The notes beneath the pieces are model-generated. The model had not been told where the DNA came from. It did no database searches and worked only from the letters and a program-made list of their open reading frames with translations. A program made the position numbers and the translations under genes. This document shows positions 48,155-56,052 of a stretch of DNA of 58,004 bases, piece by piece (positions within the stretch are counted from its first letter, which is position 1; each line of letters begins with the position of its first letter). Origin of the DNA: Nanobdellota archaeon. Lineage in GTDB: Archaea; Nanobdellota; Nanobdellia; SCGC-AAA011-G17; JAGVZF01. The DNA is taken from assembly GCA_038046405.1 (NCBI GenBank), contig JBBSWI010000003.1, forward strand, positions 1 through 58,004. Reading direction: 5' to 3'.

Positions 48155-50950
48155 ATGGACATAAAAGAAGGATTGACATTTGACGATGTTTTATTAGTCC
48201 CGAAGAAAACTCCTGTAATGTCGAGAAAAGAAGTAAGCGTTCAAAGCATCTTAACAAAAAGAATCCAGTTGAATGTACCTTTAGTATCTGCAAATATGGA
48301 CACTGTGACTGAGAGTGCTATGGCTATAGCGATGGCTAGACAAGGAGGTATAGGAATAATACATAGATTCCTGCCAATCGAAAAACAAGTTGAAGAAGTC
48401 CAGAGAGTAAAAAGATCAGAATCATTCATAATAGAAAAGCCTGTAACTATAGATCAGAATAAGACATTGAAGGAAGCTAAAATCTTAATGACTGTTAATG
48501 ATATTGGGGGGATCTTAGTAATTGATGACAATAATGATTTAAGTGGAATATTGACTAATAGAGACATATTATTTCAGGATAATCCAAGAACAAAGATATC
48601 TGAATTGATGACTCCCAGAAATGAGATGATAACTGCTCCTTATGGAATAAGTATAGACGAAGCAAAGAAGATTCTTTATGATCATAGAATAGAAAAACTA
48701 CCTTTATTAGACAAAGATGGAAAGATTCATGGATTAATAACTACTAAAGACATTAGTAAGAAAGAGAAATATCCAAATGCATCAAAAGATCTCAAAGGAC
48801 GATTATTAGTTGGTGGGGCAGTTGGTGTGAAAGAGGATTATATTGAAAGAGCAACTGAGATTTATAGAGCTGGTTGTGATGTCTTAGTTATTGACATAGC
48901 TCATGGTCATAGTGATATTGCAATAAAATCAATAAAAGAGATTCGCAAAAATCTTGGGTCTGTTGATCTAATCGCTGGAAATGTAGCTACAGCAGAAGGA
49001 TGTAAAGAATTAATTAAAGCTGGTGTAGACTGTGTTAAAATTGGAGTTGGCCCGGGAGCCGTTTGTCTGGAAGGAGACACACCAATATTAATGAATGACT
49101 ATACTGTTAAAAATATAAGGGATATAAAACCTGGTGAAAAAGTAATAACCCACAAAGGGAGATCAAAAAGAGTAACTAAAACATATAAAAGACATTATAA
49201 AGGCGAAATTCTAAAATTAAATGTAGGTGGAAGTCCTGGAACAATAAAAATGACTCCAGAACACCCCATTCTAAGCATTAATTTTAAAATTGATCCTAAA
49301 AAAATGAAAAAGAATGGATCAAAATATTATTTTTATAAAAAGAAATATACAAAAAATCTTAATTGGATTGAGGCTGGATCGTTAAAATCTGGAGATGTAG
49401 TTGTAATACCTAAAAATAAACCTGTTTTGAATAAAATTTCTTTTGATTTAGCTAAATTGATGCCAGAATATAATCACGACGATAAATATATCTGGTCTAA
49501 TAAAATTGGATTCAATCCAAACATAGAATCTCATGGGAATATTGCAAAAAGATTTAACACAACTCATAGAATTATTGAAAATATAGTGCATGGCAATAAA
49601 TCTCTGAATATGGAATTAAACGGGCAAGTTAATCAATATTTAGATATTTCTAATTATACCCGAGAAATTCAATCACTTAAAATTAATAGAAATATAGGGC
49701 TAAATAAAGATTTTATGAGAATAATTGGATATTATTTAGCAGAAGGATTTATCGGTGGTTATGAGAAGAATAAACATTTATGTTTTGCATTCTCAAGCAA
49801 AGAATTGGAATATCATGAAGACATAAAAAGATTAATTAATAATATATTTGAATATAAAAACTCAAAAATTCTTTTTAAAAAAGATAGGAATTCAGCTACT
49901 GTTCAAATTTCTAATAATATAATAGCAAGATTTTTCAAATCTTTAATACCTGGAGTTGCTCATACCAAAAAAATACCCTTGTTTATAATTAACCAAGATA
50001 ATGAACTATTAAGAGAGTTGCTAATAGGAGCTATTAGGGGTGATGGTTCAATAAAGGAACCTAGACGAGTTAGTTATTTTACAACTTCCAGAAATCTAGC
50101 TTTCCAAATAGCTGAAATATTTGTTAGATTTGGTTATATGCCAAGCATAAACGTTGGGAAGAGTCATAATCCTAATTGGAATGATAAATGGAGAGTATCA
50201 ATATCTGGTGCCCAATATGAAAAATTTGCATTAGAATTCCCAGAATTTAATATTCCAAGAAATGAAATCAAAGGAAAACAACAATTATGGGAAGATAATG
50301 ATTATATCTATCTAAGTATTGACAATATAAAAAGTGTAGATGATGAATTAGATGTGTATAATATAGAAGTAGAAGAAGATAATTCCTATATTGCAAATAG
50401 AATCGCTGTACATAATTGTTCAACAAGAATTGTAACTGGTGTGGGAGTTCCTCAATTAACTGCAATAATGAATTGCGCAAAAATTGCAAATAAGGAGAAT
50501 ATTCCAATAATGGCTGATGGAGGCATAAAAAATTCTGGAGATATATCTAAAGCAATAGCCGCTGGAGCTTCTACAGTTATGCTTGGAAGTTTATTGGCTG
50601 GAACAGAAGAAAGCCCTGGAGCAATAATAATGAGGCATGGAAGACGTTTTAAGATATATAGGGGAATGGCATCTTTTGGTGCAAATCTCGGAAGGAAACA
50701 AAGAATAAACAACAATAATGATATTGATACTGATTTATTAGACATGACTCCTGAAGGCATAGAAAGCTTAGTTGAATATAAAGGATATGCCTCTGAGGTA
50801 ATAACTCAGTTAGTTAATGGATTAAAGTCTGGAGTTTCATATTGTGGATCAAAAGATATCAAGGGGATGCAAAAAAATGCAGAGTTCATCAAGATGTCAA
50901 TAGCTGGATTAAAAGAAAGTCATCCTCATGATGTAGAAGTTTTAAAGTGA
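48155..50950 (+). CDS. guaB: IMP dehydrogenase/GMP reductase family enzyme with a CBS pair, intein-containing (about 480 aa after splicing)
   Basis: [37 protein letters not shown]|C STR, ADGGI, YRGMAS, PEG, ESHPH. Confidence 0.9.
49064..50416 (+). mobile_element. Intein (451 aa) with LAGLIDADG homing endonuclease
   Basis: Starts [10 protein letters not shown]; block B MTPEHP; endonuclease helices IIGYYLAEG and LIGAIRGDG; ends [21 protein letters not shown], followed by Cys. Confidence 0.96.
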
Positions 50951-51913
50951 ATCTTTTTTCTTTTTCATTAAGATATACAACACAAGCAGCACTATTATTA
51001 TCAAAGTAACCAATCCAACAGTGTTGAATAAAACCAAATTCTGGGTGAGTATTCTCTGCACACTATAGAAATACTGTGTTGTTCTAAGGAAATCAAAAGC
51101 GTTTATTATATAAGTTCCTCTATAGACAATCATCAATCCACCGGCAGCCAATATCAACAAGCCTGCAATCAAGTTGGTTGAGTGAATCTTTAATTTTCCT
51201 ACGCTGAATTCTTTTCCCCTCAAAAATCTCGATTCTGCCAAATTATATTTGTCCCAGAAAAAAGATAATAAGAACAGCGGCACAAAAACACCTATGGAAT
51301 AAGCAAACATCAGCAATGCTGCATTAAAATAGTTCCCGAGAACAGATGCTATTGTAAGTATGCCTGCAAGTATAGGGCCTGCACATACATTCCAGCCCAA
51401 GCCAAAAAATATTCCATAGGTATAGACCCCAAAAACATCATGCTTGAATTTCCTGTTTAGTCTTATAAAGCTGAAACCCTTTCCAAGTATTGTAAGAATC
51501 CCGAACGATATCAAGAAAAATCCTGCTATCAAAGCAAGATTAGGGTTCTCATACTGGAATTGCGTTAGGGTGTTGCCTAGTTTGGCCGCAATCAGCCCAA
51601 GTATTACAAAAATTGTTGTGAAGCCCAGGAAAAATATCAGTGTCATCTTTGTAATTTCTCTCTTTTCTTTGAATGTGTAGGAAAAAAAGGCAGGTACAGA
51701 AACATAGCTGCATGGACTTAAAATTGCTAGAACTCCTGCTAAGAAAGCAATCAAGAAACTTAAGCTTCCTAGGAACTGCTTTGCACTCTCTTTTTCATAT
51801 TGCTGGCCGGCTATTATGGCGGGAGGCAAATCTAATTGAGAAAGAACTATTGAGGAAAGGAAAATAAAAACAATTAAAAAAATAAAGAGTTTCTTCATAT
51901 CATTATGAAACAA
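50942..51913 (-). CDS. ccdA: CcdA/DsbD-family transmembrane thiol-disulfide transporter
   Basis: FLAGVLAILSPC...P and GLGWNVCAGPILAGIL; multiple TM helices. Alternative start at 51898. Confidence 0.9.
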   Translation of the reverse strand: MFHNDMKKLFIFLIVFIFLSSIVLSQLDLPPAIIAGQQYEKESAKQFLGSLSFLIAFLAGVLAILSPCSYVSVPAFFSYTFKEKREITKMTLIFFLGFTTIFVILGLIAAKLGNTLTQFQYENPNLALIAGFFLISFGILTILGKGFSFIRLNRKFKHDVFGVYTYGIFFGLGWNVCAGPILAGILTIASVLGNYFNAALLMFAYSIGVFVPLFLLSFFWDKYNLAESRFLRGKEFSVGKLKIHSTNLIAGLLILAAGGLMIVYRGTYIINAFDFLRTTQYFYSVQRILTQNLVLFNTVGLVTLIIIVLLVLYILMKKKKDSL

Positions 51914-52307
51914 TCACTTTTCCTTTCACGTCTTTATGGCCCGGGCCGCATGGCACTGTGCATATGAAATTGAAAGTTCCCTTCTGATCCGCCACAAACT
52001 GAACTTCTATCGTCTCTCCAGCAGCTATTTCTTTATTTATGTTATATCCAGAAAGGCCAAATCCATGGATCTTTGTGTCTACATTCTTAATCCTTAATAT
52101 TACAATTGTGCCTTCATTCACATTTATAATGCTGGGAGTGTATTTAAAGCTGGTTACTTCTATATTGAATATTTTTGTATCCCCGGTAGGCACTGGCGGC
52201 GGACCATCGTCTTGGTTGTTTTTATTTCTGCTGTCAGTATTAGAATTTGCGCAAGATGCAATTAACACAAGCGCAATTGCTAAAATTGCAACTACGCTTT
52301 TTTTCAT
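51903..52307 (-). CDS. Cupredoxin-domain lipoprotein (COX2/CuA-like motif)
   Basis: Lipobox LIASC; FKYTPSII; IHGF; FICTVPCGPGHKDVKG. Start at 52307 (MKKSV) preferred. Confidence 0.85.
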   Translation of the reverse strand: MKKSVVAILAIALVLIASCANSNTDSRNKNNQDDGPPPVPTGDTKIFNIEVTSFKYTPSIINVNEGTIVILRIKNVDTKIHGFGLSGYNINKEIAAGETIEVQFVADQKGTFNFICTVPCGPGHKDVKGKVIVS

Positions 52308-52308
52308 T

Positions 52309-53520
52309 TTAAGAACCCCCACCGGTGTCTTGTACTGGCTTAGGCTCAATAACAGAGTTTGTTGTCAAGTCTTTGTATGGAACATTAAGCACTTCAAAAG
52401 TCCTGAATATAAACACATTATCACTTTCTATAGTACCTACCTGGTTCCATAGCTCAATGAACGATTCGTAATCCTTAGCTTCTTTGCTTAATACAATTGT
52501 TGGCACTTTATTTATTTTATATTTCGAAACAAGATTATTGCCTTCTGTTGAGCCGATATCAATACTCTTTTCTGAATTTAAAAACAATCCGAATCTTGCC
52601 AAGATTAATTTATGGAGTGTTACATTATAGCATTGCGTGCATAAATTATCTGTCAAATAAATTAAATCAACAAGTCCTTTTATACTGTTTGTATCTAAAT
52701 CTTTATATGGTGGAGGAACAGCCCTTAAGATGTATGAGCCGTCGTATTCTATCGAGCCTATCTTGCTCCAGCTCGCAAGTATTTGATTTCCTAAATAGGC
52801 ATTTAAATCGCTTGAAAATATAACAGTAGGAATTTTTGTGATGTTGTACTTTGTTATATACTCTTGTGCCTGTGCAATGTCAAGAGTTTTTTCATCTGTG
52901 ATTATCACACCAGCCCTTATTAATTGCGTCGGCAACGAGCTCAAATCAGTACAGTTTTTGCAGCTTGAATCCTTGATGTTTATCAGCGTTACCTTTCCAA
53001 TTTCCTTGTTTAATGCAAGGTCATAGTAAATGGGGGTTAATTGCTCAAATAATAATACATTGTCTTTTAAGGCAAGACCCATGTTGCCCGTTTTATTTAT
53101 CTCGCCAGTTATAATTATAGTTGGCAGTTTTTTTATGTTATTCTGCATAATCAGATTTTTTGCTTCTTGATCGGAAAACTCCAGAGTTCTTTCGCTTGTA
53201 ACATTTACGTTATTTTCCTTAACTGCGGAAACAACTTTGTTTATGTCATAGCATTCCTTGCAGTTAGAGTTTTTGATTATAACCATGCTTATTAAAGCAG
53301 GTTTGTTTCTTTCAATTTCTTCTGCAAGCACTTTCTTATAAGATTGGTGCAGGGAAAAAATAAGGATTAAATTTATTATTAAGATTGCAGCAAGGCTTAT
53401 CCCCAAAATCAATGTGTAGTTTATCTTTTTTTTCGGATTATTTTGTTGGGAATGAGAATGTGTTTCAGAAACATGATTCTCTGTTGGGTGTGTAGGCTCA
53501 TTATGTTCTTTGGTGTCCAT
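52309..53520 (-). CDS. Membrane-anchored protein with three thioredoxin-like CxxC repeats
   Basis: His-rich N-terminus and TM helix, then three repeats with CKEC, CKNC and CTQC, each followed by an I-x-K-[LIV]-P-T cis-Pro motif. Start at 53520 preferred. Confidence 0.8.
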   Translation of the reverse strand: MDTKEHNEPTHPTENHVSETHSHSQQNNPKKKINYTLILGISLAAILIINLILIFSLHQSYKKVLAEEIERNKPALISMVIIKNSNCKECYDINKVVSAVKENNVNVTSERTLEFSDQEAKNLIMQNNIKKLPTIIITGEINKTGNMGLALKDNVLLFEQLTPIYYDLALNKEIGKVTLINIKDSSCKNCTDLSSLPTQLIRAGVIITDEKTLDIAQAQEYITKYNITKIPTVIFSSDLNAYLGNQILASWSKIGSIEYDGSYILRAVPPPYKDLDTNSIKGLVDLIYLTDNLCTQCYNVTLHKLILARFGLFLNSEKSIDIGSTEGNNLVSKYKINKVPTIVLSKEAKDYESFIELWNQVGTIESDNVFIFRTFEVLNVPYKDLTTNSVIEPKPVQDTGGGS

Positions 53521-53591: not shown

Positions 53592-53813
53592 TTAACACCC
53601 GCCAACCATTTCAGGCAGCTCATTAGTCGAGCTTGGAAAAGCTGATTCGCCTGTTGAAACACTAGTGCTTCTTGAAGCTGAACCGATACTTACTTTTCCG
53701 GCACTCATGTCTGTCTTTAATTTTATCAGCTCATAGGCTTGCACAGCAGATATCACTACTAAAACACTTAAAACAACTATTATTACGATGTTCTTGTTCA
53801 TTTTGTTTAACAA
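53592..53813 (-). CDS. Small membrane-anchored protein ending in PEMVGGC
   Basis: TM helix, S/T-rich linker, C-terminus LPEMVGGC-TAA. Confidence 0.8.
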   Translation of the reverse strand: MLNKMNKNIVIIVVLSVLVVISAVQAYELIKLKTDMSAGKVSIGSASRSTSVSTGESAFPSSTNELPEMVGGC

Positions 53814-54502
53814 CCTCCAACCATTTCTGGTATGTCTTCTAATTGTCCTACAGAACCTTTCTGTCCAGATTTTAGTTTCTGCATTAAGGCGCGATCATTT
53901 AAAACACTGGGGCTTAATTCAAGCCCATTCTGATTTGCCAACAATGCTTTCTCTACCATGTTTCTCGGATAGTATATAGATTTCCATTTTGTCAATTCCA
54001 AAAGTATCTGATCATTAGACATTTCTGGATAATTTTGAATAATATATTTAGCAAGTCCGCGGAATGACAATGCGTGGCTGCAGCCACATAAATCTCGACC
54101 TTGGCTGTCTATAACAGATGGTGCGCTGCAGCAGAATTCGCAGCTTATTTTTGTCCCTATTTCAATATATCTCTGCTTTTGTTCTTGGGTCAATGATTTT
54201 GTTGGAATCTTGGTGTCTAAAGCGGCCAGTTTAGAAAGGCTTTTTACTGGATCATCGTAGCTTACGCCTAATTCAGAACCGTAAACTTCCGGATCCCCTT
54301 TCGGAATTAATTTGTTTATTACCTCATTCACATCGGCATTAGAGCTTAGTTTTATCGATGTGCTGCTTGAACCAAAAGAAAATTTGTTTCCTGACAAAGA
54401 AAGTATTTGAAACTGGTTAAATAACACTAGAATTGTGGTGAGCGCCAATAAAATATAAGGAATGTATTCAAGTGTTTTGCTCTTTTTGTTGTGATGTTCC
54501 AT
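53807..54502 (-). CDS. Membrane-anchored Cys-rich protein ending in PEMVGGC
   Basis: TM helix; ISCEFCC...LCGCSH; C-terminus IPEMVGGC-TAA. Confidence 0.8.
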   Translation of the reverse strand: MEHHNKKSKTLEYIPYILLALTTILVLFNQFQILSLSGNKFSFGSSSTSIKLSSNADVNEVINKLIPKGDPEVYGSELGVSYDDPVKSLSKLAALDTKIPTKSLTQEQKQRYIEIGTKISCEFCCSAPSVIDSQGRDLCGCSHALSFRGLAKYIIQNYPEMSNDQILLELTKWKSIYYPRNMVEKALLANQNGLELSPSVLNDRALMQKLKSGQKGSVGQLEDIPEMVGGC

Positions 54503-54663
54503 TTGCTAATTATTAGTTTTACAAGTTTTGTAAATCTTGCAAATCAAACTAATATTTAAACCTTTCTTTTTATTTTTTAAATTCAAAAAAAATCTCAATT
54601 ATTACTATAAAGTAATCCGATAGTATTAAAAATGTAATAATGATAAAAATCCCCTGTGAGAAA

Positions 54664-54903
54664 ATGGCAAAATCAGTGAAGATTTACACGACCAAGACAT
54701 GTCCTTATTGCAACATAGCAAAGGAATTTTTAAAAGCAAATAATGTGAAATACCAAGAGATTGATGTCAGCAGTGATAGAAAGGCGGCAGAAGATATGAT
54801 AAAGAAGTCAGGCCAAATGGGCGTTCCGGTTATTGATGTTGATAGCACAATAATAGTGGGTTATAACAAAGAAGCGCTGAAGAAAGCCTTGGGCATTAAA
54901 TAA
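54664..54903 (+). CDS. Glutaredoxin/NrdH-redoxin
   Basis: IYTTKTCPYC, SGQMGVPVI, IVGYN. Start at 54664 preferred. Confidence 0.93.
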   Translation: MAKSVKIYTTKTCPYCNIAKEFLKANNVKYQEIDVSSDRKAAEDMIKKSGQMGVPVIDVDSTIIVGYNKEALKKALGIK

Positions 54904-54922: not shown

Positions 54923-55138
54923 ATGAAAAAACATCATGTTTATGTATGCGGAAGATGCGGCTATAGATCTCATTCTAAAATAGTCTGCCCTACATGCAAT
55001 ATACATCTTGAAGAGCAATGCAAGAAATGCCTAAATGCTGAGGGAAACTGCATCTGTAGGATTCATGGACCATTTAAGCACGGAAAACAATTACGCAAAG
55101 GCAAAAGACAAAAAAAGTCCAAGAAAAGGGTGAGATAA
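54923..55138 (+). CDS. Small Cys-rich zinc-binding protein with a basic tail
   Basis: CGRC, CPTC, CKKC, CIC; translationally coupled to trxB. Confidence 0.65.
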   Translation: MKKHHVYVCGRCGYRSHSKIVCPTCNIHLEEQCKKCLNAEGNCICRIHGPFKHGKQLRKGKRQKKSKKRVR

Positions 55139-56052
55139 TGTATGATATAATTATTATAGGAGGTGGCCCTAGCGCATTAGCTGCTTCCATTTACGCTGCA
55201 AGGCAGAAAGTAAATTTTATTTTAATTACGGAAAACATAGGCGGCCAGGTTCTTTTAAGCTCCGACATAGAGAATTATCTTGGATTTAAGTCGATAAGCG
55301 GCATCGAATTAGTCCCAAAGTTTATTGAGCAGCTTGAGCATAATAAAGTGCAGATAAAGGAAGAAAAAGTCAGTTTCATAGAAAAGAAATCCAAAAACTT
55401 TGCTATAACAACCAACAAAAAAAATAACTACAAAACAAAAACTATCCTAATGGCATCGGGGAAAGGGCCGAGAAGATTAAATATCCCTGGCGAGGACGAA
55501 TTTATAGGCAAAGGTGTTTCTTATTGCGCATTGTGCGATGCAGCATTATTTCGTGAAAAAATTGTCGCTGTTGTTGGCGGAGGAAATGCCGCAATGGACG
55601 CAGCATTACTACTTGAGAAATACGCAAACAAAATTTTTATTATCACAATCAATACAGATTTGATGGGTGAACCATTTATGATGGCTAAAATAAAAAAAAG
55701 CAAGAAAATAGAAGTAATAACAAATGCCAAAACCAACATGATTGCTGGAGAGAAGTTTGTCAATGGAATCTCCATTGAGATAAACGAAGCCAAAAAAACT
55801 CTGCCTGTTGAGGGGGTCTTTATTGAGATTGGATCAATCCCTAGCGTAGATTTTGACAATCTGACAAAAAAGAACCAGTATAATGAAATTATTCTTTACA
55901 ATAATGAAACAATGTCAAACATGACTTCAGTTAGAGGTATTTTTGCTGCCGGCGATGTAACAAATGTACAAGAAAAACAACTGATAGTTGCTGCCGGCGA
56001 AGGCGTTAAAGCTGTTCTTAGTATTTTTAAATATCTCCAATCATTGAAGTAA
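55138..56052 (+). CDS. trxB: Thioredoxin reductase (TrxB/AhpF-like)
   Basis: IIGGGPS, GVSYCALCD, VVGGGNAA, IFAAGDVT. Confidence 0.95.
   Translation: MYDIIIIGGGPSALAASIYAARQKVNFILITENIGGQVLLSSDIENYLGFKSISGIELVPKFIEQLEHNKVQIKEEKVSFIEKKSKNFAITTNKKNNYKTKTILMASGKGPRRLNIPGEDEFIGKGVSYCALCDAALFREKIVAVVGGGNAAMDAALLLEKYANKIFIITINTDLMGEPFMMAKIKKSKKIEVITNAKTNMIAGEKFVNGISIEINEAKKTLPVEGVFIEIGSIPSVDFDNLTKKNQYNEIILYNNETMSNMTSVRGIFAAGDVTNVQEKQLIVAAGEGVKAVLSIFKYLQSLK

Follow-up and report, generated by a model that had tools for sequence, protein, structure and literature searches.

The locus described here raises a simple question: why should two adjacent genes in a tiny groundwater archaeon encode membrane proteins of very different size that end in the same seven residues? 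The genes lie in a stretch of 58,004 nucleotides (hereafter the window), corresponding to positions 1 to 58,004 of contig JBBSWI010000003.1 from assembly GCA_038046405.1, a Nanobdellota genome of 931 kb in 40 contigs with 35% G+C that is rated 96.6% complete. The larger gene (53807..54502, minus strand) encodes 231 residues ending ...EDIPEMVGGC-TAA, while the smaller gene (53592..53801, minus strand) encodes 69 residues ending ...NELPEMVGGC-TAA. The tag P-E-M-V-G-G-C is read from 53810..53830 in the large gene (stop codon at 53807-53809) and from 53595..53615 in the small gene (stop codon at 53592-53594), both on the minus strand. The respective codons are CCA GAA ATG GTT GGA GGT TGT and CCT GAA ATG GTT GGC GGG TGT, exactly as an earlier note on this DNA had written them, and they differ at three synonymous positions. 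The small gene can also be read from a TTG at 53813 to yield 73 residues (53592-53813), but the ATG at 53801 is more likely to be its start, since 78 homologs begin with M-[NK]-K. As detailed below, the two tails probably represent a hitherto undescribed flexible cysteine arm used for copper or disulfide handling at the cell surface.

It is evident that the shared tail is not a product of chance, as only four of the 13,169 stop-to-stop, six-frame open reading frames (ORFs) of at least 30 residues in this genome end in GGC, and all four belong either to the window pair or to a paralogous pair on contig C6 with the ending [LI]PSQVGGC. The tail is also found well beyond this genome. A collection of 5.8 billion proteins contains 144 relatives of the large protein, none with a Pfam domain, and those with names are labelled Woesearchaeota or Aenigmarchaeota. 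Among the 120 homologs listed, 116 end in VGGC. Scanning one genome per species yielded 80 loci from many DPANN lineages, which together with the two of the host genome constitute a set of 82. In 79 of these, as counted by script, the large gene is followed on the same strand by a gene of 64-118 residues with the same tail, and the partners conform to the pattern [LV]Px[MQ]VGGC. For two of the three exceptions, the contig ends 114 and 17 bases past the stop of the large gene, whereas in the third a masked run of N breaks the ORF call and the DNA still reads L-P-T-M-V-G-G-C-stop. Thus, every locus with downstream DNA has a tailed partner. When 1.84 billion cluster representatives were searched with a profile, 317 of them matched at E<=0.001. 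The ending G-x-C is found in 245 of 261 family members, and 244 of these 245 have exactly six Cys from C-x-x-C-C onward. More distant members have MVGSC, MVGAC, WVGEC or QQGEC as their tail, with the C-terminal Cys and the Gly at -3 still in place. One of the fused members bears the label Candidatus Magasanikbacteria, a bacterium of the CPR, and one cluster contains a metagenome-assembled genome labelled Desulfobacterales, both of which are unconfirmed labels taken from bins. The pair would seem to form the core of a module of the cell envelope in DPANN archaea, to which some bacterial members labelled as CPR also belong. Of the genomes sampled from the phylum, about a quarter (35/151) keep this two-gene module, and the host genome keeps two copies. 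Its retention in so many small genomes implies that it does something valued at the cell surface.

Several explanations would require no function of the peptide at all: the genes might have duplicated recently or undergone gene conversion, or the DNA might contain an element such as a ribosome-binding site within the GGAGG-like Gly codons. The tag of the large window gene does contain GGAGGT 11 bases before the ATG of the small gene, and the tag DNA is identical between partners in 7 of 81 pairs. However, the partners differ by at least one synonymous change in 74 of the 81 pairs, the tag Gly codons are spread over GGA, GGC, GGT and GGG, the distance separating the large and small genes varies from overlap to >1 kb, and the tail is retained across phyla at 30-40% domain identity. 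These observations refute such explanations and leave them a negligible probability. Furthermore, the stop codon directly follows the Cys in 81/81 cases with TAA, TGA and TAG all being used, and no fixed gene is found downstream of the small gene's own tag. The varied codons, stops and spacing rule out gene conversion, a ribosome-binding site within the tag and stop-codon recoding, the last of these through the use of all three stop codons. Judging from these sequence comparisons, the tag is under selection as a peptide, as the earlier note had proposed in preference to recent duplication.

An identical tail on two proteins also resembles a shared recognition signal, by which one enzyme might cleave, lipidate or cross-link both proteins at the C-terminal Cys, and a Gly-Gly preceding the last residue recalls known processing sites. 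Cys-bearing C-terminal sorting signals include CGP-CTERM, MYXO-CTERM and PGF-CTERM. Like the tails of the pair, these are short conserved C-terminal motifs with Gly and Cys that are common to unrelated proteins. Unlike the tails, they precede a membrane helix and basic residues and are found on numerous proteins within one genome, whereas the Cys of the pair is the last residue, leaving no room for such a helix or basic tail, and is limited to two families (4/4 GGC-ending ORFs in the host genome). The same restriction is seen more widely. Among 151 high-quality genomes of the phylum, the tag DNA pattern is present in 42, and 35 of these have two or three adjacent matches on the same strand. 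Ten sites are found astray, of which six likewise belong to the two families (a third pair, two loci where a tailed small gene follows a large gene without a tail, and, at contig ends, a single large gene and a single small gene) and four are chance matches, three without a tagged ORF and one in a frame of 26 codons. No sortase, archaeosortase or similar peptidase is a conserved neighbor, as the recurrent M48/M56 peptidase pairs with a BlaI-like repressor. Likewise, no NCBIfam model matched the pair at E<=1, with C-terminal sorting models included in the search. A sorting or modification signal is accordingly very improbable.

The anatomy of the two proteins is more informative. In both, a few basic residues precede a single N-terminal hydrophobic helix, which can be read directly from the sequence as the earlier note had done and which suggests that the remainder of each protein is probably located outside the cell. 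The large protein consists of the basic N-terminus, the membrane helix, a low-confidence linker, a helical ectodomain of ~175 residues and the C-terminal tail. Its invariant residues are C121, C124, C125, C139, C141, H143 and C231, and the invariant order of the ectodomain is P-x-G-x-P-x-x-Y-G ... S-x-D-x-P, C-x-x-C-C, C-x-C-x-H, W-K ... P, a variable linker and the tail. What had been called simply a Cys-rich protein can now be specified, since the large ectodomain contains exactly 6 Cys in 81/81 cases, including the terminal one, while the small protein contains exactly 1 (81/81). The small protein consists of a membrane helix or signal peptide, a Ser/Gly/Ala-rich linker and the tail, with a linker median of 47 residues past the helix (S 23%, G 17%, A 13%) and alignment invariants P63, V66, G67, G68 and C69. 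The partners had been described as dissimilar apart from the tail, which is accurate insofar as the small protein lacks the domain. Nevertheless, both proteins also have a polar motif, N/Q-x-x-Q-[IL], where the membrane helix ends on the outer side. This common motif suggests that the large and small proteins may associate within the membrane, and the latter could be viewed as the large protein minus its domain. AlphaFold2 modelled the large protein as all-helical with a pLDDT of 86.5 over its whole length and 93.6 in the ectodomain (pTM 0.90), and the tail has a pLDDT of ~82-84 in both models after a weaker linker.

The Met of the tag, which the earlier note had taken as part of a Met/Cys motif, is present in the window pair but is not invariant, as Gln occupies the position in 8 of 79 pairs. 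Partners always agree at this position (M/M 71, Q/Q 8, mixed 0; n=79), which suggests that the two tails vary together. The agreement is not statistically significant, given 3-4 switches on the tree and 2-3 independent comparisons (sign test p 0.5). The domain columns that best track the Met/Gln state of the tail (137, 57, 108, 147 and 130) provide a weak signal that is confounded by descent. Additional Met- and His-rich segments exist in subfamilies. A linker motif Y-[DE]-x-M-M-x-x-[MH]-H is found in 4/81 small proteins and again in the loci L083-L085, and 14/81 large proteins have a His-rich cytoplasmic N-terminal extension (at least 6 His in the first 70 residues), among them those of L013, L015, L017, L033, L034, L062, L066, L067, L069, L070, L074 and L076.

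In two variant modules (L084:1125-2588, plus strand, and L085:1028-2481, minus strand), the large protein ends before the tail and has 5 Cys, and the tail is found only on the following small protein. The arm can thus come entirely from the partner, in trans. The small proteins of these modules also have a cytoplasmic CC motif and the linker G-G-E-T-Y-x-x-M-M-A-R-M-H-P-E-Q, and a third gene encodes a membrane protein of 173-176 residues with an H-C-P-L-C motif and no Pfam family. The Cys arithmetic could also be read as that of an assembly tag. In this scenario, the tail Cys closes a structural disulfide with the odd Cys of the domain, and the small tail competes or swaps with it to create a covalent heterodimer, such that the tail is a docking and locking peptide rather than a catalytic arm. 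The exact counts of 6 and 1 Cys, the 5-Cys large proteins that are then followed by a tailed small protein, the confident placement of the tail in the models and the polar helix-end motif with its suggestion of membrane pairing are all compatible with this scenario. On the other hand, one Cys would be left unpaired with both tails present, a lock has no need for a flexible linker of ~45 residues, and the adjacent dedicated reducing pathway described below argues for cycling thiols. We regard an assembly tag as improbable.

A probable reducing pathway is encoded in the gene neighborhood. In the window, the operon order is large, small, triple thioredoxin, cupredoxin and CcdA. The triple thioredoxin (52309..53520, minus strand; Pfam Thioredoxin_3, Thioredoxin and Thioredoxin_2) is membrane-anchored with three CxxC motifs (CKEC, CKNC and CTQC), and its start is likely the ATG at 53520 instead of the GTG at 53598 given in the ORF list. 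Its counterparts contain 6 Cys in 56/61 members, and the window copy begins with a His-rich stretch like those of some large proteins. CcdA (50942..51913, minus strand) is a membrane thiol-disulfide transporter matching Pfam DsbD_TM (E 1.4e-12) and DsbD_2. Divergent from the pair, the plus strand encodes a cytoplasmic glutaredoxin-like protein with a CPYC motif (54640..54903; Pfam Glutaredoxin E 1.3e-18), and a thioredoxin-reductase-like flavoprotein (55138..56052; Pfam Pyr_redox_2 E 1.1e-38) that is, by its position, the likely cytoplasmic electron source. Between them lies an ORF (54923..55138, plus strand) for a Cys-rich protein of 71 residues with several CxxC-like pairs, a Lys/Arg-rich tail and no Pfam or NCBIfam match; its position suggests that it may belong to the same system. 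No tRNA was found in the window.

Neighbors were counted as families within 5 kb at the 81 loci with a large gene, 66 of which have 3 kb of sequence downstream. One or more thiol partners are encoded at 75/81 loci. The triple thioredoxin is found at 60/81, CcdA at 56/81, a single thioredoxin-like protein at 27/81, and a BlaI-like repressor and an M48/M56 peptidase at 39/81 each, while a cupredoxin (16/81, by family) and a P-type ATPase (7/81) are less frequent. By genome, CcdA is encoded in 30/35 pair-bearing genomes vs 49/116 others, and within 5 kb of the pair in 22, although kinship among the 151 genomes causes this contrast, like the others between the same two groups, to overstate the association. 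The BlaI-type repressor (PF03965) and the short M48/M56 membrane peptidase, which has two conserved Cys, are encoded divergently upstream of the pair and constitute a regulator layout (for example, L016:6013-6759 and L022:7469-7840, both minus strand) that is absent from the window locus. The single thioredoxin-like gene, where located just downstream of the pair, encodes an anchored protein with a monothiol WCxYT motif and 3 Cys, in contrast to WCPHC paralogs at the same locus. Examples are L020:9140-9616, L071:8827-9246 and L075:8903-9355 (plus strand).

Such neighbors raise the possibility of a pure disulfide relay, which is the main rival to the interpretation we prefer. According to this alternative, the large protein is a CcmH-like thiol reductase and the single-Cys tails shuttle electrons, forming mixed disulfides with C-x-x-C-C and with oxidized surface targets, which the triple thioredoxin, fed by CcdA, would resolve. 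Comparable reductive or repair pathways include CcdA-Etrx-Msr and DsbD-DsbG. Besides the triple thioredoxin, CcdA and the divergently encoded reductase and glutaredoxin, the relay is favored by the monothiol WCxYT gene adjoining the pair and by one fusion of an exported FKBP-type isomerase (a foldase) with the family domain. It also derives support from the only structural match to the large protein. In three VIA-align runs on two models, the periplasmic domain of Pseudomonas CcmH (2HL7) ranked first and was alone above Z 5 (Z 5.8, rmsd 2.8, 75/82 aligned; Z 5.7, rmsd 3.4, 78/82, twice; next rows at Z 4.2, 4.0 and 2.6), although according to the notes of that program a Z under 8 may reflect merely a common helical arrangement. 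The corresponding Foldseek row has E 1.7, probability 0.69 and TM 0.56 (target-normalized), and neither model matched the PDB at E<=0.001 by Foldseek. Hhalign placed the C-x-x-C region of the family on the LRCPKC of CcmH and the S-[IV]-x-D-S that comes after it, with a probability of only 0.39% (E 0.16) or 0.92% (E 0.059), using a CcmH profile of 13 enterobacterial sequences out of 120 listed. CcmH is described as a single-pass, non-thioredoxin thiol reductase whose C-x-x-C lies in the helix 1-2 loop beside a pocket proposed for the Cys-bearing apocytochrome c motif (PMC3884852).

The possible parallels to CcmH extend to the overall design. Both proteins have a single membrane-helix anchor. 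By the weak structural likeness, the large protein may also share a helical bundle with C-x-x-C in the loop after the first bundle helix, and like CcmH it presumably takes its place in the pathway after a CcdA/DsbD-type transporter and a protein of the thioredoxin type. However, the domain of the large protein is twice the size of CcmH and contains an additional conserved N-terminal part (P-x-G-x-P-x-x-Y-G ... S-x-D-x-P), and it has five Cys, a His and the C-terminal Cys tail in place of two Cys. The sequence likeness is not significant by either Pfam or hhalign. Pfam CcmH (PF03918) matched none of 25 family members at E<=10 and nothing in the whole host genome at the same threshold, though the model matched in control genomes. 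Cytochrom_C_asm (PF01578) had no match in the host genome at E<=1 despite its 96.6% completeness. Given a Z below 6, the lack of significant sequence likeness and the lack of a Cytochrom_C_asm match, the large protein is kept out of the CcmH family, and CcmH is best considered the nearest known shape among model-based comparisons, with a weak likeness. Other searches likewise led to no known family, in line with the earlier note, which knew of no characterized family with this tag: neither protein had a Pfam match at E<=0.01, a PDB profile search gave nothing convincing (best E 1.2), the ESM Atlas returned unnamed clusters only, and a literature search found no mention of the tag or the system, with subscription journals and bioRxiv supplements outside its reach. 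The disulfide relay is further weakened by its demands, since a reductase requires two Cys and not five plus a His, and it leaves the Met/His-rich linkers, the His-rich N-termini, the Met/Gln position and the copper neighbors unexplained. We consider it somewhat unlikely.

The copper context of the window is provided by the gene at 51903..52307 (minus strand; ORF list start 52349), which encodes a CuA-type cupredoxin with a lipoprotein-like N-terminus (Pfam Cupredoxin_1 E 1.5e-15). By phmmer against the PDB, it matches the CuA domain of Thermus thermophilus ba3 oxidase subunit II (E 8e-13), and it contains the motif C-x3-C-x3-H-x2-V, with its relatives ending in the axial M. It appears to be an orphan, as the host genome has no match to COX1 (oxidase subunit I) and none to SCO1/SenC (PF02630) or PCuAC (PF04314) at E<=0.1. 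A cupredoxin-like ORF is present within 5 kb at 23/82 loci using our own HMM, with 15 of the ORFs there containing C-x3-C-x3-H-x2-[M/V]. At the genome level, Cupredoxin_1 is matched in 34/35 pair-bearing genomes vs 60/116 others, a contrast that is likewise inflated by kinship. The earlier note had staked its idea of a copper- or thiol-handling tag upon conservation of the tag in homologs and an association with thiol or copper genes elsewhere; conservation is extensive, and both kinds of genes recur around or alongside the pair. Among copper delivery, a redox shuttle and covalent modification, the three mechanisms it put forward, the note had made no choice. In several relatives, DsbD_TM (CcdA) and Cupredoxin_1 matches are found in one open frame of 458-634 residues (shared frames include G111:C3:475245-476579, G142:C32:44313-45299, G135:C22:11571-12899 and G112:C1:587650-588618), suggesting that CcdA-cupredoxin fusion proteins exist in the phylum.

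The interpretation we favor, with a probability of roughly 0.4, is that the tails are reduced Cys arms carrying Cu(I) or another thiophilic metal to or from the Cys5-His center, serviced by CcdA and the thioredoxin. In this model, the membrane-anchored large protein would display a CcmH-like helical domain with a Cys5-His center (C-x-x-C-C ... C-x-C-x-H), and both proteins would present a free -[LV]-P-x-[M/Q]-V-G-G-Cys-COOH. The terminal thiolate, aided by the Met/Gln at the fourth position before it, would serve as a movable ligand for a thiophilic cargo, of which Cu(I) is the likeliest. Such an arm could pick up the ion at the membrane surface and then give it to, or take it from, the Cys5-His center where the tail would dock; alternatively, the arm might pass the ion to the CuA-type cupredoxin of the same operon. 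All seven thiols would be kept reduced by a presumed flow of electrons from the cytoplasmic reductase and glutaredoxin to CcdA and on to the triple thioredoxin. The small protein, as an anchor with a Ser/Gly linker and tail, would constitute a second arm with a longer reach and, in some lineages, the sole arm. This model is favored by the retention of the tail and its selection as a peptide, the agreement of partners at the Met/Gln position, the supply of the arm in trans, the tail pLDDT in both models and the reducing partners at 75/81 loci.

Cu(I) is preferred as the cargo for several reasons: 1) the operon encodes a CuA protein in the absence of known assembly factors, cupredoxins are enriched in pair-bearing genomes, and the second pair of the host genome is accompanied by an HMA P-type ATPase, an ArsR-type regulator and a Met/His-rich protein, 2) the subfamilies exhibit Met/His-rich inserts, His-rich N-termini and cytoplasmic CC motifs, and 3) the center is composed of CC and CxC motifs while Met and Gln alternate in the tail. 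Copper sites typically feature CC and CxC motifs, runs of Met/His and an exchange of Met with Gln. The window operon can also be compared with known CuA assembly modules (Sco, PCuAC and the membrane-anchored thioredoxin TlpA, plus Cox17 in mitochondria), since it similarly unites a CuA-type cupredoxin, an anchored thioredoxin, CcdA and small Cys proteins. It differs in that the pair matches neither SCO1/SenC nor PCuAC and lacks both CxxxC+His and H(M)X10MX21HXM, and in that the host genome lacks oxidase subunit I and most pair loci lack a cupredoxin within 5 kb. According to PMC6696091, the CuA cysteines need a thiol reductase before a chaperone inserts two coppers in turn, a requirement for reduction and stepwise insertion that two arms and a thioredoxin line would match.

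A number of observations weigh against copper delivery. The sole fold likeness is to a thiol reductase and not to a copper protein. A cupredoxin is located near the pair in a minority of loci only (16/81 by family, 23/82 by HMM), a P-type ATPase within 5 kb in just 7/81, and cupredoxins are common in the phylum without the pair (60/116 genomes). SCO1/SenC, which is too sparse for an informative comparison, does not show a complementary distribution, with 14/151 genomes above the cut-off, mostly through partial thioredoxin-like matches. The co-variation of the Met/Gln position has only 2-3 independent switches behind it, and one thiolate per arm would be a weak Cu(I) site alone. In addition, the adjacent monothiol WCxYT gene and the FKBP foldase fusion both fit a disulfide relay better.

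A Cys at the end of a glycine-rich peptide could also carry sulfur, in the manner of SoxY. The terminal Cys would then bear sulfane sulfur or thiosulfonate adducts from one enzyme to another, and CcdA with thioredoxin would rescue the misoxidized arm. SoxY itself is a beta-sandwich, unlike the all-helical model of the large protein. SoxY substrates are described as bound on the Cys of a C-terminal GGCGG swinging arm (PMC6067878, PMC5336275), which resembles the tails in being a flexible Gly-Gly-Cys peptide with one reactive Cys outside the cytoplasm. A title cited in PMC10451225 names SoxV, a CcdA orthologue, as reducing a periplasmic thioredoxin, such that a CcdA-type transporter and thioredoxin would service both systems (SoxV; SoxW/SoxS). 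A class V aminotransferase, which is cysteine-desulfurase-like, is also encoded downstream of the second pair. However, this enzyme is cytoplasmic and limited to one locus, the tail ends in GGC-COOH on two proteins rather than in GGCGG on one, the domain is helical, and no Sox, Dsr, rhodanese-type or other sulfur-oxidation enzyme is present among the 40 commonest neighbor families. A sulfur carrier is decidedly improbable.

Swinging arms with a cysteine, thioredoxin lines fed by CcdA and reductases resembling CcmH are all known kinds of components. What we did not find described is the same free Cys-ended tail on both an enzyme-like protein and an adjacent bare tether. Such a tether can stand in for the cis arm, and the pairing has been retained across DPANN. 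There is also a bolder conception, which we hold to be rather doubtful when all of its parts are taken together. The small protein might be a ribosomally made “peptide cofactor”, a flexible arm of ~45 residues in which the terminal Cys is the only working part and the working end is common to an enzyme-like partner that would service it. It could be membrane-tethered, or released if an A-x-A site were cut, and would belong to a two-armed device that loads the two CuA coppers, or buffers Cu(I) or thiols in the pseudo-periplasm, of organisms without Sco, PCuAC and glutathione. By analogy, it might be a protein-encoded counterpart of the lipoyl and phosphopantetheinyl swinging arms that arose in ultra-small DPANN and CPR cells. 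These archaea and bacteria have tiny genomes with many unnamed genes, and their surface is the meeting place with hosts, metals and oxidants. If the tails of the pair do dock on the Cys5-His center, they would represent a new way of handling copper or thiols outside the cytoplasm and would indicate a route, so far missing, by which the orphan CuA cupredoxins that are frequent in these organisms could be assembled. A more immediate gain is the definition of the family by its domain and tail, together with an annotation motif, [LV]-P-x-[MQ]-V-G-G-C at the C-termini of two adjacent proteins.

Further variety exists within the family. Fused forms include P0199, P0215, P0218, P0219, P0252, P0266, P0264 and P0247. 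Apart from the FKBP fusion, the other seven begin with a polytopic membrane domain, which contains G-C-P-x-C-G in six of them and C-P-V-C-P in the CPR-labelled P0264. Pfam returned nothing for the membrane domains fused to or located beside the family (GCPxCG, HCPLC and CCAHH types). Additional ORFs of 39-50 residues ending in P-S-G-P-[VI]-G-G-G-C are found between the large and small genes at L071:8674-8826 and L076:8491-8610 (both plus strand), and these may be either a third, minimal arm or chance ORFs. The second pair of the host genome (L082, G000:C6:12001-28565) has Q-type tails and is located in an island encoding a MarR-like anchored regulator, a Met/His-rich protein of 100 residues, the class V aminotransferase, Cys-rich small proteins, a VKOR homolog, a Pyr_redox_2 flavoprotein, an ArsR-type regulator and an HMA P-type ATPase.

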